A DNA stretch of 43,263 nucleotides from a virus, in the IMG/VR virus record IMGVR_UViG_3300009431_000882; one strand, given 5' to 3'. The position numbers and the translations under genes were made by a program. Numbering within the stretch: the first letter of the stretch is position 1; each line of letters begins with the position of its first letter. Below are positions 8,218 through 34,826 of the stretch, piece by piece. The notes beneath the pieces were generated by a model that was not told where the DNA came from, did no database searches, and was given only the letters and a program-made list of their open reading frames with translations.

Positions 8218-9575
8218 GATTTCGACAGTACTTAGAACAAGCAGAAGATGCCAAAACGATGCGGGCTCATATCCCCCTCGACCCGGAAGTTTACGTCCTA
8301 AAGAACTTGTTTGACAAGCACGGTCACGATCTGCGAGTAGTCGGCGGGGCAGTACGAGACTTCTTAACACACGTCTACCGAGGCGGTAATGGGTCGAAAT
8401 ATAAGCCAAAGGACATCGATCTAGTGACACCCGCTCCACCAGACGAAATTAAGGCGGTCATCACAAGCCAGGATGCTGAGGAGAAAGGCATCCACGATCT
8501 TCCAATTGGAGCAGCTTTCGGTGTCATAGCAGCGGTCTTTCCTAGACGCACGAATGATCCAAAAGAAAAACCACCTATGTATGAAATTGCCACTTATCGA
8601 AAAGACATAGGCGCTGGACGACGCCCTGATGCAGTAGAATACGTCTCAGATGCAACACATGATGCGAAACGACGTGATCTAGCGTACAATGCCTTATACT
8701 ATGACGTTCCTGATAAGCCCGGCGAGGAAGGGATTCTTTACGATTACAGCGGTGGCCAAGGATTCGAGGACTGTAAAACCGGTTTTCCTCATTTTGTTGG
8801 CGAGCCGCTTGAGCGTTGTAGAGAAGACAACCTTCGTGTGATGCGATACATTCGTTTTCTCTCCAGAGGACACGTGGGCGGACCAGAGGTCGTCGAGAGA
8901 GAAGACGCCAAAGCAGCGGAAGCCCTGCGACAATTTGCCAGTATGCCAGGCGTTTCGTCCGAAAGAATCATAGCCGAGTTTCTATCTGGCCTGAAATCAG
9001 CACTTGATCCGGTCAACTACCTACGTACGCTTCATCATTTTGGCATAATGGACCGCATGTTCTCCAATCTTCAAGTTAACACCAAGTTTCAGAACCTCAG
9101 AACGCTTGGTTCAGGAGACATGGTAAGGAATCCCCGGATCGTTTTGGCCTACATCCTAAAAGACAATCCACCTGAGACCCTAGGCCAGGCGCTACAGACG
9201 CTCAAATTCAACAGTCCCCAAGAAGCTGGTAGATTGGTAGAAGGCATTGTGTTTCTAGTAAGTTTGCAAAATCTCAGCACCGACACGGCTACCGGTCTTT
9301 CAAAGACTAGAGACAAACTACGGCCAGATGTAAGGATGCCTGATCCTAAAGCTAGAGAGAGCTTTATCTCTCAACACAACGACGAAATGAGAGCCTGGGC
9401 CGCTCTACTTAAACTAGATCAGAATACAATGGCTGACTTCACTCGCTATGAACGAACTATCAGAGGAACCGACCCTCGATTCGCCGGTTTGCAAGGCAAA
9501 GAGTTAGGAAAAGCAATCAAAGACGCTGAGCAAGAAGCCTTTGTTGCGTTGTCGAAAAAGAAGAAAAAGAGGTAG
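8214..9575 (+). CDS. CCA-adding tRNA nucleotidyltransferase / poly(A) polymerase family protein (class II head domain)
   Basis: Motifs LRVVGGAVRDFL...DIDLVT, YEIATYRKD, RRDLAYNALYYD and EDNLRVMRYIRFLSRG match the class-II nucleotidyltransferase head and neck. The start is reassigned to the ATG at 8214, which overlaps the upstream stop. The track ORF begins at 8118. Confidence 0.75.
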   Translation: MRFRQYLEQAEDAKTMRAHIPLDPEVYVLKNLFDKHGHDLRVVGGAVRDFLTHVYRGGNGSKYKPKDIDLVTPAPPDEIKAVITSQDAEEKGIHDLPIGAAFGVIAAVFPRRTNDPKEKPPMYEIATYRKDIGAGRRPDAVEYVSDATHDAKRRDLAYNALYYDVPDKPGEEGILYDYSGGQGFEDCKTGFPHFVGEPLERCREDNLRVMRYIRFLSRGHVGGPEVVEREDAKAAEALRQFASMPGVSSERIIAEFLSGLKSALDPVNYLRTLHHFGIMDRMFSNLQVNTKFQNLRTLGSGDMVRNPRIVLAYILKDNPPETLGQALQTLKFNSPQEAGRLVEGIVFLVSLQNLSTDTATGLSKTRDKLRPDVRMPDPKARESFISQHNDEMRAWAALLKLDQNTMADFTRYERTIRGTDPRFAGLQGKELGKAIKDAEQEAFVALSKKKKKR

Positions 9576-9576
9576 A

Positions 9577-10296
9577 ATGTTCCGTAGGTATTTTGTCACA
9601 GAGGAAACTCGAAAAGAAAACATCGTAAAGATCGACATCTTTGATTTCGATGACACTCTGGTCTACACCCCTACCGAAGACAAGGCCGCTCGAATCATAG
9701 CTCGCTATAATCACAAAGCTCAGGATCAAGGTAAAAGGCAGTTCAAACTCAAAGAAGATGAATACTACTGGTACAACCCACAATCGTTAGAACCACCAGT
9801 GGTGCCTAAGCCTACGCCATGTGCTATGTTGAACCAAAAAGTGGCACAGGAATTCTATGCTTCGCAACGAGACCCTAGCTGCCTCACTGTACTACTCACA
9901 GGCAGACCACCAGAATTGCGAAAACACATACAACGGGTTCTTGATGACTTCAAACTAAAGCCAGATCGTTTCTACCTGATGCTTAAAGGCCACCAGGTAA
10001 TGCGAAAAAAGGTCGACCGGATCGCTAAACTACTCGATGAGTTCCCACAGATAGAAGAAATCGCACTGTGGGATGATAAAGGCCCAGATCGAGCTAAACT
10101 GATTGGGAATCCCGATGAGAACCATATAGCGGACTTCAGACGATTTCTTAACATCTGCAAGGCAAAACGGGAGCGGCGAGACCCAAATTGGAAACTCAAA
10201 ATCAAAGTAAATGAAGTGCCGCCCCGTGATGAAGAGTCAGTGAAACTGCTACTACAACAGAACCCTGACTACGGAAACGCAGAAAAGAAGCGCTAG
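9577..10296 (+). CDS. HAD-superfamily phosphatase, resembling the T4 polynucleotide kinase phosphatase domain
   Basis: Motif I DIFDFDDTL (DxDxT), motif II LLTGR and motif IV WDDKG, in the same order as T4 Pnkp (FDVDGTL, VSGR, IDDR). The ATG lies 1 nt after the stop of the CCA-enzyme gene. RBS AAGAGG. Confidence 0.6.
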   Translation: MFRRYFVTEETRKENIVKIDIFDFDDTLVYTPTEDKAARIIARYNHKAQDQGKRQFKLKEDEYYWYNPQSLEPPVVPKPTPCAMLNQKVAQEFYASQRDPSCLTVLLTGRPPELRKHIQRVLDDFKLKPDRFYLMLKGHQVMRKKVDRIAKLLDEFPQIEEIALWDDKGPDRAKLIGNPDENHIADFRRFLNICKAKRERRDPNWKLKIKVNEVPPRDEESVKLLLQQNPDYGNAEKKR

Positions 10297-10652
10297 TCTT
10301 CTTCTTCCAAGCAGTGGCCTTTGATCGATGAGTACATCACCATACCACGCTTGCGGCCTTCGCTAGAGAACTTATAGTCGCCGTAGTTGGGAGCAAAATG
10401 AATCGCCCCGTCGATAAAGACCCTATGCCCCACTTCAACCCCAACTCCTTCCGGCACTTGTGGGCCAACATCGAGAACATAGGCTTCGTGAATGGCTAAA
10501 TTACTATCCCCAGTGAGCTTCAACTTAGTATTAAGAACTTCCTGTGCTGACAGCACTTCCACAAAGATATAACTGCCGTAGGCTTTGACATCGACGATTT
10601 TACGCAGTGGCGACCGATCCTCTACCACTTCTTCTCTTAACAACACAGTCAT
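10293..10652 (-). CDS. GroES/Hsp10-like small protein (co-chaperonin fold), 119 aa
   Basis: VLDVGPQVPEGVGVEVGHRVFIDG resembles the GroES core VVAVGPG...VKVGDKVLF. Low-stringency similarity only. Confidence 0.4.
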   Translation of the reverse strand: MTVLLREEVVEDRSPLRKIVDVKAYGSYIFVEVLSAQEVLNTKLKLTGDSNLAIHEAYVLDVGPQVPEGVGVEVGHRVFIDGAIHFAPNYGDYKFSSEGRKRGMVMYSSIKGHCLEEED

Positions 10653-10703
10653 TACTTTCTCCTTCAGATAAGGTTGGCTTATCTAAAGAAGAGTAATGGC
10701 TGG

Positions 10704-11021
10704 TTATCCTTTGCCTAACAATCGCCAAATAGTAGCCCTATCAAGAGAAATCGCCCGGTGGATTTCCACCGGGCGATTTCGTTGGATTTCGTTGATTGCT
10801 TGAAGGATGTCATCAAGGTCGTGTCCGTGGTTGCCTCCGCTGTTCAGCCAAATAAAGTATGCTCGTGTTTGGATATCGTCCCATGATTCACTCAGAGCAA
10901 CTGGGCAGAAACCAAAGCGGTCAGCAAATCTCAGCGTCCTAGAGAGAGCGTACCAGCGGGCTTTGATGTTATCCCCGTGGCGGCGCTTTCGAGTACCGTC
11001 AGGGGCTAAGTTGGGTGTCAT
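10704..11021 (-). CDS. hypothetical protein, 105 aa
   Basis: ORF with normal composition. Same orientation as the GroES-like gene. Confidence 0.4.
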   Translation of the reverse strand: MTPNLAPDGTRKRRHGDNIKARWYALSRTLRFADRFGFCPVALSESWDDIQTRAYFIWLNSGGNHGHDLDDILQAINEIQRNRPVEIHRAISLDRATIWRLLGKG

Positions 11022-11132
11022 GGCTACACCTCACCTCTGGGCGGCTTCTGGGTTGTCTTCTCTATCTATAACTTCGGCAACAGAATCGCTCAATATGAAT
11101 TTTTTGCGGCGCTTGCTAGCATAAATACCCAC

Positions 11133-11357
11133 ATGAAACGGTTTCGCAAATGGCTTGAAAGCAATGCCGACTACGACCAGGCATTGAATCGTCCTCAATT
11201 CATGTCCCCTCGTTTCGACCCTAGGAAACGGGGTTCGCATAGGATTGGGGAAAAGCAAGAAGACCCGATGTACCACACCCTTCACAAGCGGCGCAAATCC
11301 CGTGCTGCCACGAAGAGCCCCGCCGACGAACTTTTCGGTTTTATAAATAAATCCTAA
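11133..11357 (+). CDS. hypothetical small basic protein, 74 aa
   Basis: ORF. The motif TGCTAGCATAAAT lies 12 nt upstream of the ATG, so the mRNA may be leaderless. Confidence 0.4.
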   Translation: MKRFRKWLESNADYDQALNRPQFMSPRFDPRKRGSHRIGEKQEDPMYHTLHKRRKSRAATKSPADELFGFINKS

Positions 11358-11432
11358 AGGCCCTCAAGTGCTAGTACCGATACTGCTAGTACGAGCCCGC
11401 ATCTTGTAATTGACCGATGTTTTTGGATCACT

Positions 11433-16971: not shown

Positions 16972-16997
16972 GCCCTGAAAAATTGCTCCAGATAGGC

Positions 16998-17025
16998 TTG
17001 ACACGGACTCCGGGATCGCTAGAAT
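16998..17025 (+). promoter_or_regulatory. sigma70 promoter P1: TTGACA-N16-TAGAAT
   Basis: Consensus -35 at 16998..17003. -10 TAGAAT at 17020..17025. Confidence 0.55.
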
Positions 17026-17067
17026 CGGTCGAGTCGCCTGCGGGTGACGGATTTTTTGGAAACAGGC

Positions 17068-17095
17068 TTGACAACAGGCCAACAACCCTTAAAAT
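17068..17095 (+). promoter_or_regulatory. sigma70 promoter P2: TTGACA-N16-TAAAAT
   Basis: -35 at 17068..17073. -10 at 17090..17095. Confidence 0.5.
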
Positions 17096-17289
17096 CGGAG
17101 GTGGATTGACAAAGGTTCTTGCCGCCCGCCCCGCACCCAGTGACGGGGCGGGCGGCGGCGGAGTCAATCAGACCTGGGTTTTCTAGTCATCCGGTCAATA
17201 AGGAGTCTTTCAGCTTCATGGATGCGAAGGCAACAGCCACCTAACTAAACCTTTAATCACGGTGGGCTGAAAACAAACGCTTTCAGGGC

Positions 17290-17318
17290 TTGACTCCAAC
17301 TAGACAGATCGCTAGAAT
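17290..17318 (+). promoter_or_regulatory. sigma70 promoter P3: TTGACT-N17-TAGAAT
   Basis: -35 at 17290..17295. -10 at 17313..17318. The flank GATCGCTAGAATC is shared with P1. Confidence 0.55.
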
Positions 17319-17405
17319 CCCTGGTGTCAATGAGCGGAGAACAAACGCTCACGACGCTAGTAGGTTGTTAAGAAGACGGACGGGAAGAAAGTTGTTCGTG
17401 ACCTC

Positions 17406-17434
17406 TTGACAACCTAACAACACAACGCTAAGAT
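17406..17434 (+). promoter_or_regulatory. sigma70-like promoter P4: TTGACA-N17-TAAGAT
   Basis: -35 at 17406..17411. -10 at 17429..17434. Confidence 0.4.
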
Positions 17435-18541
17435 TAACGAACACATGTGGCCCCTGGGAGTTGGGACCGTTGGAGCGCAAGCAACGACCTAACCACTCCC
17501 TGGGCCGCTTTTGATCTTTGACAATTTGGTGAAGCGAGTCCCAACATCATAATGCTCTTCAGCATATGATGGCCTGGCAAACTGAGATTTGTGGGACACT
17601 CGATTGGAAAGAAAGACTGGGCTGCTCCAGTGGGTCAGTTTTTTCAACCTCATCCAGGGTGATGAGCCCAAAGGTGAGTAACCAGCGAGGACAAAACCCT
17701 AATCCGCAAGAACGGGGTGGGAGAACTGTCAAGGTTCTATGTTGAAGGATATAAGCGGTCCTTCCGTAAGGATTGATTGTCGAAACCAGCAACGGAACTC
17801 ACAAACAGGCATCGATCAGTTAAGGGCGGCAGAAGGCTATAAAGTTGCCATCATAAGAAGGACCAGAAATGGCCTGGAACGATGTTGGTTGTGGAAAAGC
17901 CTCCAAAAGAACTCGGACACAAGCAGTATTGCTAAGCAGCGACAAAGAGAGTCTCCAAAGCCAATCCGGCTAAACTTGTTCTGGTAACAGAAAAATCGGT
18001 GTCGGAACGGTGCCGATTTTCTCCTAAGTTGCTCTGCGGGAAACAGCGAGGACACGTCGGCCCTAACAGACGGACAGGAAAACGTGGAAACCGCATCTAT
18101 ACGTCGAGCGGCCAACACGCCCTCCCAGAACGATGGGATGATACTGTAGCAAGTATCGAAAGTCTGTGAGCCTAGTGGACATCAACCACTTAGAAACGAG
18201 GTAGAAACCTAACTACCAAAAAACAATAGGAGGTTGTGGGAACTCATAGTTTGGGTACGAGCGGATGGCAGCAACTTCGGGACAAAGGCCCGACCCCTTG
18301 GTGACAGAGGGAATCGGCTTGACTACCGGAGAAGTGAAAATCCAATCACAACCAAAACACGAGCCACAGCTATGCCACTGGCAGGTACCACGGTCGTACG
18401 CAGCGGCCGTTATACGGTGGCCTCAAAAGGGCCAGCAGACAGACCTGGCAGTAATGACGTATTGGACAAAGCGCATGGGACTCACGATACTTGATTTGTA
18501 GGTGGATCAAACTGTCTGTGGATCGAGTAACTGTCTGCGAG

Positions 18542-18579
18542 AAAGCCCCGGCACTTCGGTGTTCGGGGCTTTCTTTTTG
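18542..18579 (+). terminator. intrinsic terminator (AAAGCCCCG-gcacttcggtgtt-CGGGGCTTT, then CTTTTTG)
   Basis: GC stem followed by a T-tract, on the plus strand only. Confidence 0.65.
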
Positions 18580-18709
18580 CGCCGACCGCAATGCTAGCAC
18601 AGTCATAAGTGCTTGTGGCAGCCGTTCTTAACTCGCCTTGACCGAATTTTCATTTTCTGCGATGATGCTGCCAATAAGCACCTAACAACCACGGGAGGGA
18701 GACCAGGAA

Positions 18710-18952
18710 ATGACTAGCGACGATATCCGGTCACGATTGGTCCAGGTCTGCACAGACAATCTGGGCATTGATGAAGATTAACTGACCACCACCGGCGCAA
18801 CATTCAAGTCTCTGGGGGCCGACTCCCTAGACCTGGTGGAAGTTTTCATGGAGACGGAAGAAGAGTTCGACATCAACATCCCCGATGATGATGCCGAAAA
18901 AATCACGTCCTTCGACCAACTCCTCGCATACGTCCAGGAAAAGTCCGAATAG
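18710..18952 (+). pseudogene. acpP: acyl carrier protein (ACP) gene interrupted by an in-frame TAA at codon 24
   Basis: RBS GGGAGGGA 9 nt upstream. The translation [79 protein letters not shown] carries the DSL phosphopantetheine site and an overall ACP fold pattern. The single TAA at 18779..18781 sits where E, K or Q is expected. Confidence 0.6.
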
Positions 18953-18966
18953 GAGCAGAGAACCAA

Positions 18967-27781: not shown

Positions 27782-27930
27782 CTCGCCACGTCACACAGTT
27801 CTGGGAGGTCTTTTCACGTAACCCGCCCCTCGCCGCTCGGCGAGGGGCGGGTTTTTTCGTGTTGGAGGGAAACAGCAAACCTGCTATATTTCTTGTCAAC
27901 CCCAAAACCCTTAGAGAAGGAACCCCAATC

Positions 27931-28491
27931 GTGAAGAAATCCATCGTATTCCTACTTGGACTCGCCGCCGTCAATGTGATGTTCTTCTTCGTGGCCTTGA
28001 GCTACGATAACGCCGAGATCGAACTGCGCAACACAATCCTGGCTAAGCAAAAGACCAACGAAGCGTCGTTTGACACAATGTGGAAGATACTCAAACAACA
28101 GGCCAGCATTCCCGATAAGTACAAGGAGGACTTCAAGGAAATCTGGCCCGACCTGATCCGGGGCCGCTACGAGCAAGGCAGCGGCAAGATGATGAACTGG
28201 ATTCAGGAGCATAACCCCGAGTTCAAAGGCGGGGAGATGTACATGAAGTTGATGGACAGCATCGAGGCCGAGCGTAAGAGGTTTCTGCGAGATCAAGAAG
28301 AACTCGTCCAACTCAACACCGAACGCAACAACATGATCCAGAAGAAGGTGCCCAAGTTCTTCCTGGGCCTCGTCGGTGGTGAAGAATCCCTCAAGCCCAT
28401 CGAGATCGTCGTCATCACATCCGAAGTCACGGAGCAGACCTTCGAGAGCGGGAAGGAAGACAACGTAGACTTGTTCAGTTCACCGGGGTAA
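27931..28491 (+). CDS. hypothetical membrane-anchored protein
   Basis: GTG at 27931 with GAGAAGGA 9 nt upstream. N-terminal TM helix. The track ORF begins at 27859. Confidence 0.45.
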   Translation: MKKSIVFLLGLAAVNVMFFFVALSYDNAEIELRNTILAKQKTNEASFDTMWKILKQQASIPDKYKEDFKEIWPDLIRGRYEQGSGKMMNWIQEHNPEFKGGEMYMKLMDSIEAERKRFLRDQEELVQLNTERNNMIQKKVPKFFLGLVGGEESLKPIEIVVITSEVTEQTFESGKEDNVDLFSSPG

Positions 28492-28495
28492 AGAA

Positions 28496-29095
28496 ATGCC
28501 ACACGGCACGGCAGCATACATCAGCGACCCCGTCGCCAACGCATTTGATCTGACGAGAGACCTACAACAGTGTAAGGTACTGTTTGTCACAGGCGAGAAC
28601 TGCGATTCCTCCTATTATCTTATGGCTCCCAAGTTGGCAAAATACATCCGCTTCACGGCCCCCGGCACTCACTATCCACTACACGGCCTGTCAGTAGCCT
28701 GGCGTTCTCCCGAAGGTGACGAAGACCCAGCAGAAGCGTTGATATGGGTAGAGAACCGTTTGCCTGATGCCAACCACTTGAAGTTCAACGGTTTCCCAGA
28801 GAAATGGGATTTCAAAGCACGTTTCGCACAAGAGACGCAAGAACTCGACGGAATGGTGAGACAAGGCGCAGCCCATGTTGTCGCTAATCGAAAACGCTTT
28901 GAAACGTTGCTGTGCCTCCCAGATGTCGCTCTGGATAGGTATCATTCCATGTTAGCGGAGGATTACTCCGGTCTTACGTTGGCCGACGACGAAATCACTG
29001 ACTTGCAACTATCCGATGACAGCGACCAAACCCTACGTGCCCTAAACCTCTCTGACGAAATGATCGCACGCATTCACCAACTAAAACAGCCATGA
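28496..29095 (+). CDS. hypothetical protein, 199 aa
   Basis: ORF. Its stop overlaps the next start (ATGA). Confidence 0.5.
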   Translation: MPHGTAAYISDPVANAFDLTRDLQQCKVLFVTGENCDSSYYLMAPKLAKYIRFTAPGTHYPLHGLSVAWRSPEGDEDPAEALIWVENRLPDANHLKFNGFPEKWDFKARFAQETQELDGMVRQGAAHVVANRKRFETLLCLPDVALDRYHSMLAEDYSGLTLADDEITDLQLSDDSDQTLRALNLSDEMIARIHQLKQP

Positions 29096-30282
29096 TAATC
29101 TACTCGCTCTTCCTAATCCCTTTCTTCGTAGCTGCTGTCTTGTGGCTGCTGTGGGGCGAGCGCACAGCCTGGTGGGAAATGCTCATCATATTGATCGTGA
29201 GCACGCTCCTCATCATCGGGACCAAGTTTGGCGTTGAATACACCCAGGTATCCGACATCGAATACTGGACGAACAAAGTAACCAAAGCCGAGTACCACGA
29301 AGGATGGACCGAAGAGTGGTACACCAACGAAGACATCAAAGACAGTAAAGGAAGGGTCACGGGCACCAGGCGAGTGCGCCATACCAAACGCCACCCGCCT
29401 GAATACTATCTCATTCTCCATCCCAGCGGCAAAACGTCCGTCAGCCGCTCCGTCTACCGGAAAATGGCCAGCAAGTTCGGGAATGAGAAAGAGAAAGACT
29501 TGTACCACTCCGGTCAGTGCTCGTGGGGCGACGGTGATATGTACTATTCGGTCTTTCGTGGTGCCCGAGATAAAATGACCGTTGCCACCACCGAACACCG
29601 ATACGAAAACCGGGTACGAGTTGCCAAGACTGTCTTCGATTTTCCAAAGGTCACGGACAAGCAGAAGAAAGACTACCGGCTTTTCGATTATCCCAAAATC
29701 AACGACCCCACTACCATCCCTAGCATCTTAGGCAATGGTGGACCAACCCTGGTTGCCGCCAACAAAGAATTGTGCCGCCTCAATGCCGAACTTGGTCCAC
29801 GTGGTAATCACCGACAGGTGCGCCTGTGGGTACTCATCTGGCAGAACCAGTCTCTCGACGCCGGTATGCTTCAAGAAGGGTATTGGTTTGGCGGCAACAA
29901 GAATGAATTGGTGGCCTGCATTGGCACCGACAGTGAATACAACGTGAAGTGGGCTTATGTCTTCTCCTGGTCGGAAGAGGAAAACCTGAAGATCGATATC
30001 CGCAGCTTCATACGCAAACAGAAGAAACTCGACCTAGTGCCCATTGTCGATATGATGGGAGAAGAAGTCGAGAAACAATGGATTAGAAAACAGTTCAAAG
30101 ACTTCAGCTATCTCACCGTCGAGCCGCCGTTGTGGGCCTTCTTCACATCTGGGGGTGTGATCTTACTTATCAACATCGGTATCAGCCTGTGGGTCGTTCT
30201 TAACAGCTACGATGCCGACGGCCAACGACACCGCTTCCGTTACCAGCCACGATGGAGAAGAAGGAGAATACGAAGGTGGTGA
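29092..30282 (+). CDS. hypothetical membrane protein, 396 aa (two N-terminal TM helices, one C-terminal)
   Basis: Long ORF, translationally coupled to the upstream gene. Confidence 0.5.
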   Translation: MIIYSLFLIPFFVAAVLWLLWGERTAWWEMLIILIVSTLLIIGTKFGVEYTQVSDIEYWTNKVTKAEYHEGWTEEWYTNEDIKDSKGRVTGTRRVRHTKRHPPEYYLILHPSGKTSVSRSVYRKMASKFGNEKEKDLYHSGQCSWGDGDMYYSVFRGARDKMTVATTEHRYENRVRVAKTVFDFPKVTDKQKKDYRLFDYPKINDPTTIPSILGNGGPTLVAANKELCRLNAELGPRGNHRQVRLWVLIWQNQSLDAGMLQEGYWFGGNKNELVACIGTDSEYNVKWAYVFSWSEEENLKIDIRSFIRKQKKLDLVPIVDMMGEEVEKQWIRKQFKDFSYLTVEPPLWAFFTSGGVILLINIGISLWVVLNSYDADGQRHRFRYQPRWRRRRIRRW

Positions 30283-30348
30283 AGGAATATTCATCCTGAA
30301 GGAGATCAGTCTTTTCGTCGCATCATTTCCCGAGTGCGGCCCGCTTCA

Positions 30349-30382
30349 CCGCCCGCCTGGCCGTTGGCCAGGCGGGCGGTTT
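30349..30382 (+). terminator. terminator-like hairpin (14-bp perfect stem CCGCCCGCCTGGCC/GGCCAGGCGGGCGG, then TTT)
   Basis: Perfect GC stem 67 nt after the stop of gene 29092..30282. The U-tract is short. Confidence 0.4.
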
Positions 30383-30401
30383 CCGTGCGCCGATTTCAGA
30401 A

Positions 30402-30430
30402 TTACGTATAAAACTGGCGGTTGCTACAAT
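30402..30430 (+). promoter_or_regulatory. promoter TTACGT-N17-TgcTACAAT (extended -10)
   Basis: A near-consensus -10, TACAAT, with a TGc extension sits 9 nt upstream of the ATG at 30440. The mRNA may be leaderless. Confidence 0.4.
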
Positions 30431-30439
30431 GCCTTCATA

Positions 30440-31204
30440 ATGGCTGATACGTATATCATCTTCTTTGACAACAAACGACAAGAGAAGACAGCTTCTACTC
30501 GCAATCAAGCTGTAGCGGGATTGTTCGGTTTTCTGGAGGAGGCCACTCGGGCATGGTTCGTGGGCTTTCCCTCAGCCAATGCCTGGATTGTGTGCAATGA
30601 ACCAGATCAAGCGAAATTTACGAGTGATCTCAAGAACTGCTCCAAGACTCATGCAGAATGGTTATTAGACGTTTATGATAAGGTTGAGCTTTACGCCGAG
30701 AGCATGAACCTGGGTGTCTTTGCCAGCGCTGCGGCGTTCAGTGCTAAAGAACTGGAAAGGACCATGCAACCGGCAGAAACTATGACTCGAATAGCGGCTA
30801 CTGAAAAGGCAGAACAGATCATCGTCCGAATGTTATCACATGATGACGACGCTATTGCTGATGCCTGGCAACCAGGGGAAATCGACCCTATCAAAATACT
30901 CCAGGCCGCCGAGGTACGTATCTTCGCCTTCAATCTACATCAAGTTCTTAACAAAACGCCATTGGGTATGGAAGCGGTTGATCGTATGTGTGGCTTCACA
31001 CCAGGTACGACATTGAAGATGATCCACGCTGTCGACCCGCTCCGCCCAACCAGCAAAATGGTAGACAAGCTGGCTCGGAATTTACGGGTGGAACCTACGA
31101 ACCTATGGATCGATCTTGTGTCGATGTACCTGGAAAAGACTGGCAAGTGGGCCGAATACACGGAGACTGGCGATGGACGTTACACTCACCCTTCCAGATG
31201 CTAA
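30440..31204 (+). CDS. hypothetical protein (about 254 aa from the ATG at 30440)
   Basis: The track ORF starts at 30212 but overlaps gene 29092..30282 in another frame. The internal ATG follows the terminator and the promoter. Confidence 0.45.
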   Translation: MADTYIIFFDNKRQEKTASTRNQAVAGLFGFLEEATRAWFVGFPSANAWIVCNEPDQAKFTSDLKNCSKTHAEWLLDVYDKVELYAESMNLGVFASAAAFSAKELERTMQPAETMTRIAATEKAEQIIVRMLSHDDDAIADAWQPGEIDPIKILQAAEVRIFAFNLHQVLNKTPLGMEAVDRMCGFTPGTTLKMIHAVDPLRPTSKMVDKLARNLRVEPTNLWIDLVSMYLEKTGKWAEYTETGDGRYTHPSRC

Positions 31205-31586
31205 GTTTCAACCTGGCGACATCGTAAAGCTACCCAACAAGGCAAATGAGTTCGCCGTCTTCGTTTGCATTGAACGACGAGTAGCTCACGGTGATTTCAG
31301 AATTGCCAATGACCGGCCACAAGTCGAAGTTGGCAATGATGCCTATCACATCACGATCCAGGACGGCAGCGTTTTCAATACCGCCAACGCAAAAGAAGAT
31401 GAAATCATCCGTCCAGGTACCTTTCTTGTCATGGACCGTTCAGAAGTAGACGCACAAGGCGAGAAGATCACATGGAGCAAGCACATCTACTCTGCTGATG
31501 CACCTGATAATCTCATGGAGCGTTGGGAGAAATGGGATGGTAAGGCATATCATTGGAAAGAAGTGCTCTCTCAACAGGCTTTGTAA
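31173..31586 (+). CDS. hypothetical protein, about 137 aa
   Basis: ATG at 31173 with GGAG 7 nt upstream. Overlaps the upstream gene by 32 nt. Confidence 0.45.
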   Translation: MDVTLTLPDAKFQPGDIVKLPNKANEFAVFVCIERRVAHGDFRIANDRPQVEVGNDAYHITIQDGSVFNTANAKEDEIIRPGTFLVMDRSEVDAQGEKITWSKHIYSADAPDNLMERWEKWDGKAYHWKEVLSQQAL

Positions 31587-31616
31587 TTTAGCAAGAACTA
31601 AGGATTGGATACGAAA

Positions 31617-33638
31617 ATGACTAGGACAAAACGTCGACTATTGTTGGAGTCGCTGGAAAAACGGGAGTTGTTGACGGGAGCGACGTATCACTACGACACT
31701 AACGGAGACGATCTAGTTAATACGTTAGATATCGTTGCGTGTATTAAGGAGATTGATGAAAACGGTATTGGCCCTGTCGAAGAAGCAAATAATCCACTTG
31801 TTGATATCAACCAGGATAGAGTAATATCAACGCTTGATGTACTGGTGGGTGCGACGGAGTTAGGTCGAAGACATCACAATCCAATAGAAGTCGAAGCTAG
31901 AATCTGGGGCGAGTTGTACGAAGATAATAATGGTATACCAGGAGAACCACTGCCGTTGACACCGAAGCCGGGGGATTATGCAGTGCGGGTAGGGGATTCG
32001 TTCTTTCTAGCTGTGATGGTGCAAGAGAACTCAGACATCAACGGATTTAACCGGATTCATCTCAACCTGGAGTGGTACAATGAGTCGCTTCGGGCAAAGG
32101 CTGTAGATGAGGTAATTACAGAACATTTTACGGAAGACCACACCGGCAGTGTTAACAATCATGTAGGAGTAAGTGGCGTAGTTCTAAACCTCGGCGCATC
32201 GGCTGGCGAAAACGGCAGACCGATTGGCGACAACCAACCTGAAGTGTTTGCGATGTTGCAGTTCGAGGTGGTAGGCATTGATCCGGCAGGGCTGACGCCA
32301 ATTTGGTTGACCGAGGGGGAGGACGGGATAAACCCAGACCTCGAAATAGAGTTCGATCATCCGATTATTCGAGCCGAAACTACAAGGACCAATGATGACA
32401 TTTGGGAAGTACCTCAGTATTACAAAAATGCTCCCCCGCCTTACGATTCATCACATTGTGTAGACTGGGGCAACTTCTTCGTAAACCTTTGGACAGACGA
32501 AGATGGTCGTCCAGGAGAATGGATTGCTGACGATACAGTCAAACCTGGCGATCTATTTTGGGTCCAAGTTTTGGCCCGTGAATGCGATCCGATGCGAAGT
32601 GGTTTTCAGGGCTTGGCAATGCATTTCAGATGGGATAGTGAAATCTTAGAATTATACTATCCATTTGATCCTCAGTATGTGTTGGACAAAAAACACATTT
32701 ATCCTTCTCACCCCCGTGTTTCTACATGGCTTTCTGAAGATCAAACCGGCGTGCTTGATAATGAAGCCGGAACGCTAGCTAATCTCGGCGGCCAGCCTCC
32801 GCAAGGCAAAATGTTTGCCGATGATATCCAAGGAGACCCAAAGAGAGTGGCGACGTTGCTATTTGAGACTATTGCCACTGGAGACACTGGGATTACCATT
32901 ACCGACGTAACAACCAACCCAACGCCTGATACGTTAGATATTCGGGACATTAGTTTTACCATTATCGACAGCGAAGTCCCCGAACAGCCCAACCCGCCCA
33001 CGTATTACCCCAGACCAGGAGCGCCGCCTAATGAAGTGTATCTTCAAGCATATGAATATACGGTTCCTTGGTCTACTGGAATAACAGCGGGTGAACGTCC
33101 AGGGTATCAAATTCTCAATGGTCAAGTCGGACTTGGTGAGAAGTTTTATGTAACTGTGCTGGCCAACCATGCGGATGTTGGTTTTGATGATTTTCGTGTA
33201 TCTCTTCAATGGGACGCTACCAAGATAAAAAACATCAATGATTCATTTGAGGCGTCCAAAGCAATTACTCCGCATTTGCCTTTGTTTGATTTCGCACGCA
33301 GATATTATCATTCCCGAAGAGACGGGATATTAGGAAATCTTGGCGGCTCTGCATTTACTGCATTTGGGGTTGGTAGAACCATTGGTAACTTAACGCCAGA
33401 ACCGTTTGTTTGGTTGCCGTTTCGAGTGAAAGAAGATTTACCAGAAGGCCCATCTTTCCAAGTTCGCAGTTACACTGATCCTTTCACGGTTTATAACAGC
33501 TATTGGGAAGATGACGTTTTAGTTACACCGTTTCACATGAACAGGGGCGCAATTGTTCCGCAACCCGTTGCTAACTGGCACCGAGAGCAGTTGTTCCTTG
33601 AAGATCAACTTATCCGAATAGAGATGTGGGAAGAATGA
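31617..33638 (+). CDS. secreted protein with a Planctomycetes-type N-terminal motif and dockerin-like repeats, about 673 aa
   Basis: The N-terminus MTRTKRRLLLESLEKRELLTG is the Planctomycetota secreted-protein leader. Two dockerin-like repeats follow: DTNGDDLVNTLDIVACI and DINQDRVISTLDVLVGA. Confidence 0.6.
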   Translation: MTRTKRRLLLESLEKRELLTGATYHYDTNGDDLVNTLDIVACIKEIDENGIGPVEEANNPLVDINQDRVISTLDVLVGATELGRRHHNPIEVEARIWGELYEDNNGIPGEPLPLTPKPGDYAVRVGDSFFLAVMVQENSDINGFNRIHLNLEWYNESLRAKAVDEVITEHFTEDHTGSVNNHVGVSGVVLNLGASAGENGRPIGDNQPEVFAMLQFEVVGIDPAGLTPIWLTEGEDGINPDLEIEFDHPIIRAETTRTNDDIWEVPQYYKNAPPPYDSSHCVDWGNFFVNLWTDEDGRPGEWIADDTVKPGDLFWVQVLARECDPMRSGFQGLAMHFRWDSEILELYYPFDPQYVLDKKHIYPSHPRVSTWLSEDQTGVLDNEAGTLANLGGQPPQGKMFADDIQGDPKRVATLLFETIATGDTGITITDVTTNPTPDTLDIRDISFTIIDSEVPEQPNPPTYYPRPGAPPNEVYLQAYEYTVPWSTGITAGERPGYQILNGQVGLGEKFYVTVLANHADVGFDDFRVSLQWDATKIKNINDSFEASKAITPHLPLFDFARRYYHSRRDGILGNLGGSAFTAFGVGRTIGNLTPEPFVWLPFRVKEDLPEGPSFQVRSYTDPFTVYNSYWEDDVLVTPFHMNRGAIVPQPVANWHREQLFLEDQLIRIEMWEE

Positions 33639-33974
33639 AATGACAGGTGCCCGCAGGGTATTGGGGGCACACCCCGAAACCCGTAATAAACGAACCTTCT
33701 TTACCAAACGCTACATTCCCCCTATTTCCACCACGAATTTCTCGCATAAAAATGCCGGGAATGCCATTGCACCCCGAAAGCCTTTTTGCTAGTCTGCTCC
33801 CATCGCTCATCACGGTCAGCGATCACCAGTCGAAAGGCTGCTCGTTGACTGATGCGTGTAGCGCTTTACAGAGAATTGCGGGCCTTCGGCCTATGGCAAG
33901 TGGGCAATGCCCACTTGCCACCAGTAGGACGCCCACTCACGAACTCTGACCTGCGGACCCCCGCCGCCGTGCGG

Positions 33975-34012
33975 ACCACCGCAAGCGTTGCAAGCATCCG
34001 GTGGGCGGTTTT
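33975..34012 (+). terminator. terminator-like element (CCACCG...CGGTGG stem, G-rich, then TTTTT)
   Basis: Stem plus a T5 tract, about 340 nt after the stop of gene 31617. Confidence 0.35.
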
Positions 34013-34264
34013 TGAGAAATCACCCTGATCGCTGAGGCCGCCATTTGGCTCTCGCACGATCTGCCGCCTATGTGTGGATTTCGGATCGAGCACACGCCTC
34101 GTGCCCCAGCGATCAGGGTTCTTTCATATCCTGATGGATTGCATCCCAATCGTCGGCGCAGGCCCCCCGGCCCACGCACACCTGCTTCGCCATTGGCGAA
34201 GCAGGTGTGCCCATTTGATAACAAGCGACCATCCGTTCCTTTCGCCACGGCCGCTTCGTCCCCT

Positions 34265-34307
34265 GCCCGTTTCCTCGGATTTCCCGAGGAAACGGGCTTT
34301 TCTTTTT
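34265..34307 (+). terminator. strong intrinsic terminator (13-bp perfect stem CCCGTTTCCTCGG/CCGAGGAAACGGG, loop ATTTC, then CTTTTCTTTTTT)
   Basis: Textbook rho-independent terminator on the plus strand. Confidence 0.7.
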
Positions 34308-34556
34308 TCTCTCCTGTCAGGATCAGCCCTTCAGCGGACTATAGGCATGGTAGCCATTCCCGGTGAATCATCCTGCTAGCGTAGAATCGCTAGCGAGCGC
34401 AACTCCAGGAATCGCAAGGCATATCGAAAACGATAGTATTCAAACGCCCACTAGCTAGCATTACGAAACGCCAGTACTGCTAGCTGTGGTATTCCCAGGG
34501 TTCTACGCACATTTGTGTTTCACCGGGAATTGCTGTAGGCATGGGAGGGTGTCTAT

Positions 34557-34763
34557 ATGCATCATCGCTGCTACGCTGGGGCGACGTTTACCATCAGCTT
34601 CCTCGGCCGTATCCTACACGCTGACGGCCCAGCCTACTACGACGAGGAACACAACGAACTTGTGATTCCCCTCGCCAATGCGGCTGTCCACCTGGACCAG
34701 AGCTTTACAGGACGAATCGCAGATGGACGAGAGTACGGCACAGATTACTTGGTGGAATTATGA
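34557..34763 (+). CDS. hypothetical small protein, 68 aa
   Basis: GGGAGGG 8 nt upstream of the ATG. Normal composition. Confidence 0.35.
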   Translation: MHHRCYAGATFTISFLGRILHADGPAYYDEEHNELVIPLANAAVHLDQSFTGRIADGREYGTDYLVEL

Positions 34764-34826
34764 GACTCCTTCTTCAGTTTACCCTCCCTGCATGTCGATA
34801 TCTTCAAAAACAGCGGAGATATCCCC

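Follow-up and report, generated by a model that had tools for sequence, protein, structure and literature searches.

A noncoding spacer with perfect hairpins, an intrinsic terminator and a probable transposon-like insertion between two gene clusters of a huge-phage-like contig

The genomes of huge phages are known to carry palindromes longer than 25 nt that form perfect hairpins, are unique in sequence and lie almost exclusively in intergenic DNA; only some of them resemble Rho-independent terminators, and their function has only been guessed at, either as terminators or as modulators of translation (Al-Shayeb 2020, Nature 578:425, supplement, PMC7162821). Here, we consider a 918-nt spacer in the virus record IMGVR_UViG_3300009431_000882, which separates a gene for a protein with dockerin motifs from a small gene opening the pyrB cluster. 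The whole stretch of 43,263 nt that was analysed, referred to below as the window, is one entire JGI metagenome contig, and a further contig, L060, supplied the 9.5 kb that follow in the same phage. Judged by their sequence, the hairpins of the spacer belong to the class already described for huge phages. The interpretation that we favour, at roughly even chances, is that the spacer serves as a noncoding boundary of terminators and RNA 3′ ends between two gene clusters on the + strand, and that it was later lengthened by an insertion resembling a miniature inverted-repeat transposable element (MITE).

The most clear-cut element of the spacer lies at 34265-34307 and is the only one there to combine a GC-rich stem, a short loop and a U-tract. 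It was originally predicted to be a textbook intrinsic terminator, and it is built as one: a perfect 14-bp stem with 71% GC carries a 5-nt loop and is followed by the T-rich run TTTTCTTTTTT. It is one of two strong canonical + strand terminators in 40 kb, and a + strand transcript should end at about 34305.

Upstream of it stand two perfect palindromes, both of which turned out to be larger than first described. What had been reported as a 9-bp stem at 33894..33918 is a palindrome of 13+1+13 nt, present in a single copy in the contig, and what had been taken for a 13-bp perfect hairpin at 34178..34206 is the longest perfect palindrome in the window, with 17+1+17 nt. Folded together with the small hairpin that precedes it, the first palindrome reaches -29.9 kcal/mol, with a z-score of -4.3 relative to shuffled sequences. 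The small hairpin itself had been proposed as a GGCC-UUCG-GGCC tetraloop at 33879..33890; it is present, but it is really a GGCC-UUC-GGCC triloop and not a cUUCGg tetraloop. According to our own calculation, perfect stems of at least 13 bp with loops of up to 10 nt are expected about 0.007 times per 43 kb, and thus the three strong hairpins of the spacer are not accidents. As a separate observation, one arm of the 33894 palindrome, the 12-mer TGGCAAGTGGGC, is repeated exactly at 31141-31152, some 20 nt before the start that JGI calls (31173) for a 137-aa gene; its BLAST E-value of 1.9 is compatible with chance.

Between the two perfect palindromes there is a long imperfect hairpin. A 13-bp inverted repeat, ACCCTGATCGCTG and CAGCGATCAGGGT, had been noticed here before; it is real and extends to 23-nt arms (34016-34038 and 34103-34125), which are complementary at 20 of 23 positions (87%), include the 13-nt perfect core and enclose 64 nt with further pairing, giving a 110-nt hairpin. 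A third copy of CAGCGATCA is indeed found at 33817-33825, but at chance level: a sequence of 918 nt should contain roughly three pairs of repeated 9-mers, and several more do occur in the spacer. The proposal of a further terminator-like element at 33975..34012 fared worse: the terminator scan gave no call, the GC-rich segment that contains it is no more structured than chance (Table 1), and its T5 run alone is real.

The spacer is very rich in potential RNA structure. The region 33860-34310 has fold z-scores of -9.0 (+ strand) and -8.5 (minus strand). For 300-nt windows, the contig-wide mean is -0.95 (standard deviation 1.56), while those of the spacer range from -3.9 to -5.9 and are among the most structured of the contig, alongside other blocks poor in open reading frames (ORFs) and the 5′ end of pyrB. 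Folding was also tried as a means of assigning the strand and gave no answer: the two strands are equivalent, each element of the spacer folds equally well on both, and the sole polarity cue is the T-run after 34297 on the + strand. As to pyrB, no other 300-nt window of the contig is as structured as the 5′ end of its coding region (34801-35100; z -7.3), which includes a perfect 13-bp hairpin located inside the ORF at 34941-34972. A further in-gene perfect hairpin, of 14 bp, lies at 36812-36842.

Hairpins of the same kind are distributed along the whole contig. Counting perfect hairpins whose stems measure 13 bp or more, there are 12 in the 43-kb window and four in the next 9.5 kb, and their sequences are all different. 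Once gene starts are corrected by the JGI calls, 9-10 of the 12 fall outside genes, as do all four in the extension with respect to called genes. About seven stand 11-66 nt past a stop codon on the coding strand, one is placed between convergent genes, two follow a small gene in tandem, and the remaining ones are located in ORF-poor blocks; clear T-runs accompany only two (27820-27853 and 34265-34297). Three related huge-phage genomes, each sampled over about 36-42 kb, showed 2-8 such hairpins per stretch, mostly outside long ORFs. The spacer holds three of the nine intergenic perfect hairpins in 10% of the intergenic DNA, which by our calculation corresponds to a binomial P of ~0.06 and exceeds expectation only marginally, and its earlier description as packed with hairpins was overstated.

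The four hairpins of the extension are likewise unique and perfect, with stems of 14-18 bp, at L060 18076-18848 and 20458-20488, about 7-9.5 kb past the end of the window. Three of them are crowded into 770 nt, between small genes of the minus strand, and two of these three are arranged in tandem right after one stop codon. Another ORF-poor block, of 1.1 kb (10297-11432), bears a perfect 16-bp hairpin at 10747-10780; it comes after the genes at 8118-10296, where the gene for a tRNA nucleotidyltransferase of the CCA-adding / poly(A) polymerase family adjoins the gene for a protein with the HAD_SAK_1 "Swiss Army Knife" RNA-repair domain.

Compared with the palindromes described for huge phages, those of the spacer are perfect hairpins of similar size (27 nt at 33894, 35 nt at 34176 and 33 nt at 34265, against the published >25 nt). 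They are also unique, no further copies having been found in the ~53 kb available here, and the class to which they belong in this contig is almost exclusively intergenic, includes few terminator-like members and occurs in a huge-phage-like context. The differences concern density, which is 12 per 43 kb here versus 2-8 per 36-42 kb in the three sampled stretches, and arrangement, since three of the palindromes share one 918-nt gene-free block and do not stand directly behind genes. Moreover, a huge-phage origin is something that we infer for this 43-kb fragment.

Two other kinds of RNA hairpin are useful for comparison. In some bacterial phyla, hairpin terminators without a U-tract, called I-shaped, have been reported, and in the early mRNA of phage T7 the sites of RNase III are irregular stems with internal loops, whose cleavage leaves a protective hairpin at the 3′ end. 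All the sequence hallmarks of an intrinsic terminator are present at 34265-34307, and the other hairpins of the spacer resemble terminators, the I-shaped ones included, in being GC-rich, stable and short-looped; the palindromes at 33894 and 34176 differ in lacking a U-tract and in having perfect stems of 12-16 bp, longer than is typical. With the T7 sites the spacer hairpins share the features of unique intergenic stem-loops in a polycistronic phage transcript, whereas the irregularity and the internal loops of the T7 stems have no counterpart in the perfect ones. Both likenesses are read from the sequence.

In the favoured interpretation, transcription from the upstream gene cluster (about 27859-33638) would enter the spacer, and the stable and unique hairpins at 33894-33920, 34016-34125 and 34176-34210 would form in the RNA, where they might act as terminators lacking a U-tract, as pause sites, as protection of 3′ ends or as processing structures. 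The terminator at 34265-34307 would then end residual transcription and thereby insulate the 68-aa ORF, pyrB and the following genes. The MITE-like insertion would have come later, into a gap that originally measured about 55 nt from the terminator to the next start codon. Both the action of the hairpins at the RNA level and the read-in from the upstream operon are steps that we infer.

Several points weigh against this boundary role. It requires read-through of 630 nt past the upstream stop codon, and the resulting 3′ untranslated region (UTR) would be a long one by phage standards. Of the three strong hairpins, two have no U-tract and fold equally on either strand, which makes a role at the RNA level putative, and the segment 33683-33880 is given no role at all. 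Most genes of the contig likewise have no recognisable sigma-70 promoter, and the absence of one from the spacer therefore argues only weakly against an internal start. Finally, the huge-phage assignment has its basis in two to three proteins out of about 38 and in a fragment of 43 kb.

The spacer is noncoding, as the original prediction had it. The genes of the window were used to train a 3-periodic Markov model of coding potential, with leave-one-out testing; under this model, 35 of 37 real genes scored between +0.03 and +0.25 bits/codon, and wrong frames were negative. Every spacer ORF of at least 30 aa had a negative score (-0.03 to -0.25 bits/codon), the small ORFs at 34070..34379, already regarded as spurious, being among them. 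A sliding scan of the spacer in six frames, in which stops were ignored, revealed no coding frame, all values being near or below ~0.1 bits/codon, and the longest spacer ORFs had no match in Pfam. As for the flanking genes, the 677-aa ORF has a coding potential of +0.116 bits/codon and carries Dockerin_1 and Planctomycete-extracellular motifs, both weak; a homologue search for this protein found none. The 68-aa ORF appears to be coding (+0.14 bits/codon), with only weak similarity to Listeria-Bacteroides repeat units. A split gene or an intron was considered and rejected, since the 68-aa ORF shows no relationship to the protein encoded upstream and no intron family was found.

Ultra-small mobile elements are known in viral genomes, MPME of mycobacteriophages being an example. 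Repeats invading pithoviruses are the subject of a further report (PMC10664404). The last ~200 nt of the spacer are probably a MITE-like insertion, to judge from their layout. A 9-bp perfect direct repeat, TAGGCATGG, occurs exactly twice in the window, at 34342-34350 and 34536-34544, and inverted ends of about 20 nt that match at 17 of 20 positions lie just inside its copies (34351-34370 and 34516-34535). Such a combination of target duplication and inverted ends was obtained in one of 200 dinucleotide shuffles of the window. The element has the structure of a MITE, namely terminal inverted repeats (TIRs), a flanking duplication and a short body without ORFs. The ribosome-binding site of the 68-aa ORF follows directly after it. 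If the element is removed, about 55 nt remain between the terminator and the start codon at 34557, and the element-free site (without 34351-34544) would read ...GGACTATAGGCATGGGAGGGTG...

The likeness to MITEs and to the ultra-small mobile elements of viruses thus includes the short ORF-less body, the imperfect TIRs and the flanking duplication at 34342-34544; the difference is that the element is found here in a single copy. Neither ~53 kb of this genome nor IMG/VR yielded a second copy, and no parent transposase, autonomous relative or empty site was found. A TIR-pattern scan of JGI metagenomes also yielded no second copy, its 49 matches sharing the 19-mer only; the source contigs were not returned either, which makes this negative result a weak one. 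TIR-pattern matches in IMG/VR and the JGI metagenomes were rejected as copies of the element because they share 19-27 nt only, and those inspected lie in coding sequence, for example in an FVFHRE motif. If the insertion is real, it would be a rare trace of transposon activity within a huge phage. The features of the spacer and its flanks are listed in Table 1.

Table 1. Elements of the spacer and the flanking genes, in coordinates of the window (z, fold z-score)
Feature	Coordinates	Strand	Description
677-aa ORF, upstream flank	31605..33638	+	664 aa per JGI call; ends upstream + strand cluster
Noncoding spacer	33639..34556		918 nt; between 677-aa ORF and 68-aa ORF
Imperfect 10-bp hairpin	33656..33682	+	18 nt past stop codon; no T-run; z -1.16, not above shuffles
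Small GGCC-UUC-GGCC hairpin	33881..33891	+	4-5 bp stem, triloop
Perfect palindrome, 13+1+13 nt	33894..33920	none	as RNA 12-bp stem, 3-nt loop; no T-run
GC-rich segment ending TTTTT	33945..34016	+	z +0.09, structure not above chance
Long imperfect hairpin	34016..34125	none	110 nt; -52.9 kcal/mol, z -5.5; minus strand z -5.0
Perfect palindrome, 17+1+17 nt	34176..34210	none	16-bp stem, 3-nt loop; no T-run; -33.1 kcal/mol, z -9.4
Canonical intrinsic terminator	34265..34307	+	stem-loop 34265-34297, then TTTTCTTTTTT; z -7.4
MITE-like insertion (probable)	34342..34544	none	direct repeat and inverted ends; 185-nt body; z -4.0
Four GCTAGC palindromes	34375, 34389, 34454, 34479 (34375..34484)	none	arms of two hairpins inside the MITE-like element
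68-aa ORF, downstream flank	34557..34763	+	GGGAGGG ribosome-binding site; opens pyrB cluster; JGI-called
pyrB	34827-35741	+	after 68-aa ORF

Two proteins of the contig have matches mainly or exclusively in phages of 0.2-0.74 Mb, and on this ground the contig, itself 43 kb long, looks like a fragment of a huge-phage genome. The first, a 396-aa protein (29092-30282), matches phrog_2087 and has its best tblastn matches in LR756511.1 (595 kb), in Lak megaphages and in Erwinia and Tenacibaculum jumbo phages. The second, a 953-aa protein (2518-5379), contains a major-vault-protein shoulder domain (Pfam E 3.6e-13), and its homologues in the phage collection come only from uncultured phages of 462 kb and 735 kb. 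LR756511.1 also provides the best PyrB match among records deposited as phage genomes, with no synteny between it and the window. About three-quarters of the window ORFs have no Pfam domain, and no capsid or terminase gene was seen in the 43-kb contig.

Among 5.8 billion proteins, the nearest homologue of PyrB is 47% identical, and its contig stops 77 nt upstream of the gene. This contig (L005, Logan SRR33375158) carries a gene for an ADP-ribosylglycohydrolase a few genes downstream, as does the present phage (L060), and it may be a distant relative with partial synteny. A scan of GTDB genomes with PyrB gave a sole match, of 37%, in Muribaculaceae, and scans of IMG/VR with PyrB and with the dockerin protein gave no relative. 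At the DNA level, blastn of the 918-nt spacer against phage records detected nothing similar, and no similarity elsewhere in the contig marks the spacer as a repeat family or a paralogous noncoding RNA (ncRNA). Other JGI contigs are identical to the window over the shared part of the spacer region, the one difference from the window being a 12-nt insertion at 36140, outside the spacer. In contig L004 this insertion consists of two CTGCCG units inside a 146-aa ORF (35753-36193), that is, a strain-level polymorphism of a hexanucleotide repeat.

Giant phages are known to encode small RNAs (sRNAs). In phages 201phi2-1 and phiKZ, intergenic and 5′ UTR-derived sRNAs of <250 nt with mapped 5′ and 3′ ends have been described, and three of the 11 sRNAs of 201phi2-1 are intergenic (PMC11512511). 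The spacer is comparable with them in being a noncoding structured segment that ends at a terminator, in what appears to be a very large phage genome; theirs are defined by mapped ends and are shorter, while the spacer is known as sequence only. It is conceivable, though on balance unlikely, that the spacer encodes an independent structured sRNA or medium-sized RNA on the + strand, about 290-600 nt long, whose transcription would begin within 33700-34020 at a phage-specific promoter that escapes recognition and would stop at the 34265-34307 terminator. The original prediction put forward a version of 250-300 nt that starts after 34012 and is bracketed by two terminators. The strong fold signal, the highly structured windows, the strong terminator with 630 nt of noncoding DNA upstream and the presence of an intergenic-enriched TGCTAG motif at 33787 are in agreement with such an RNA.

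However, the upstream terminator of the bracketed version does not exceed shuffled sequence, and the fold signal comes from a few perfect palindromes that score equally on the minus strand and belong to a generic contig-wide class. Besides, no relatives that could show conservation were obtained from the collections searched. No + strand promoter of the sigma-70 type was found in 33000-35200 by a generic scan, phage-specific promoters being beyond its recognition. Clean TTGAC-N16/17-TAnnnT promoters number five in the window, all on the + strand and all intergenic, and none of them is in the spacer. The search of Rfam 15 over the window, which had been suggested as a check, gave no family at the gathering score or at E<=0.1, and at E<=10 the spacer region showed noise only, such as matches to microRNA and DsrA-like hairpins. 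ARAGORN detected no tRNA or transfer-messenger RNA. A discrete structured sRNA is possible but unsupported, and the data do not establish a new RNA gene; should the spacer encode one after all, a lineage without close relatives would have provided a new phage ncRNA.

Four of the five clean promoters are found within another ORF-poor block, of ~2 kb (16972-18966), which has no coding potential in any frame and bears a perfect 13-bp hairpin at 17121-17156. These promoters, the four best sigma-70-like ones of the window, are located at 16998, 17068, 17290 and 17406, all on the + strand, and have the form GGCTTGAC-N16/17-TAGAAT or TAAAAT. The block looks like a cluster of short noncoding transcription units.

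Perfect palindromes might also act as DNA, being targets for cruciform or hairpin recognition or sites for phage or host proteins in the initiation of replication or recombination, in packaging or as operators; we consider this improbable. In its favour, the palindromes are exactly perfect and the strands equivalent, and in those at 33894 and 34176 only one base, the central one, is unpaired, and there is no U-tract. The minimum of the cumulative GC skew of the contig lies a few kb downstream, at 36-37 kb. GCTAGC palindromes cluster nearby, in the putative insertion, and occur preferentially in intergenic DNA. Among hexamers, TGCTAG shows the strongest enrichment there (13 intergenic versus 3 genic occurrences, p 3e-7), and GCTAGC has 15 sites in the window versus 6 expected, often as TGCTAGCA; examples of the two motifs are found at 11114, 14266, 18592, 20871, 26642, 26656, 33787, 34374, 34478 and 35746. 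When TGCTAG/GCTAGC was analysed as a promoter motif, its distance to gene starts was not fixed and no longer consensus emerged; it might serve as an operator or as part of a promoter, or be related to methylation or restriction. Against a role of the hairpins as DNA, their sequences are all different, so there is no common protein site, and neither iterons nor DnaA-box clusters nor AT-rich unwinding elements appear in our reading of the sequence and the repeat list. The skew is not at its minimum in the spacer, and the contig covers only a fragment of the genome. Moreover, hairpins of the same class stand 11-66 nt past stop codons elsewhere, which points to a role at transcript ends.

Quite improbable as well is a single large ncRNA of about 430-600 nt that would occupy ~33880-34307, would be built of many hairpins and would have no Rfam counterpart. 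The palindromes and the 110-nt hairpin would then be domains of a functional RNA and not generic terminators. If this were true, it would represent a new class of large phage ncRNA.

The location of the terminator upstream of pyrB and on the same strand calls to mind attenuation. In the E. coli pyrBI operon, the ORF of the pyrL leader peptide reads through a terminator. A riboregulatory leader had been raised as a possibility; one of this kind, for instance a nucleotide-sensitive attenuator of the pyrBI type at 34265-34307 controlling the 68-aa ORF and pyrB, is very unlikely. Two ORFs (34070..34366 and 34074..34379) do run through the terminator in the manner of pyrL, and the segment after it is also structured (z -4.0); however, these ORFs have no ribosome-binding site and score -0.18 and -0.25 bits/codon. 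The terminator precedes the next start codon by 260 nt and pyrB by 520 nt, and much of this distance is made up by the probable MITE insertion. No promoter was detected upstream, and no PyrR-binding or riboswitch family was found in the region by Rfam, even at E<=10.

The notion of a hidden protein gene, be it a small protein, a gene with a stop codon reassigned as in Lak-type phages or a decayed pseudogene, is largely refuted and has hardly any probability left: stop codon recoding does give some huge phages an ORF-poor look (PMC7162821), a + strand frame in phase with both flanking genes has TGA stops only over 33641-34364, and the JGI calls include a 50-aa gene at 33640-33792, but all six frames are at or below background with stops ignored, which rules out a gene with a reassigned stop codon, the halves of the TGA-only frame score -0.11 and -0.18 bits/codon and the 50-aa ORF -0.07, the longest ORFs have no Pfam match, and the remaining contig is read normally with table 11.

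If the interpretation of the spacer as a noncoding terminator and RNA 3′-end boundary is right, the locus would be an ordinary operon boundary, and it would add a well-dissected example to the still unexplained class of huge-phage palindromes. It juxtaposes three types of structure, namely one canonical terminator, two perfect palindromes without a U-tract and one long imperfect hairpin, and their occurrence together would make the spacer a convenient test case for reporter assays.

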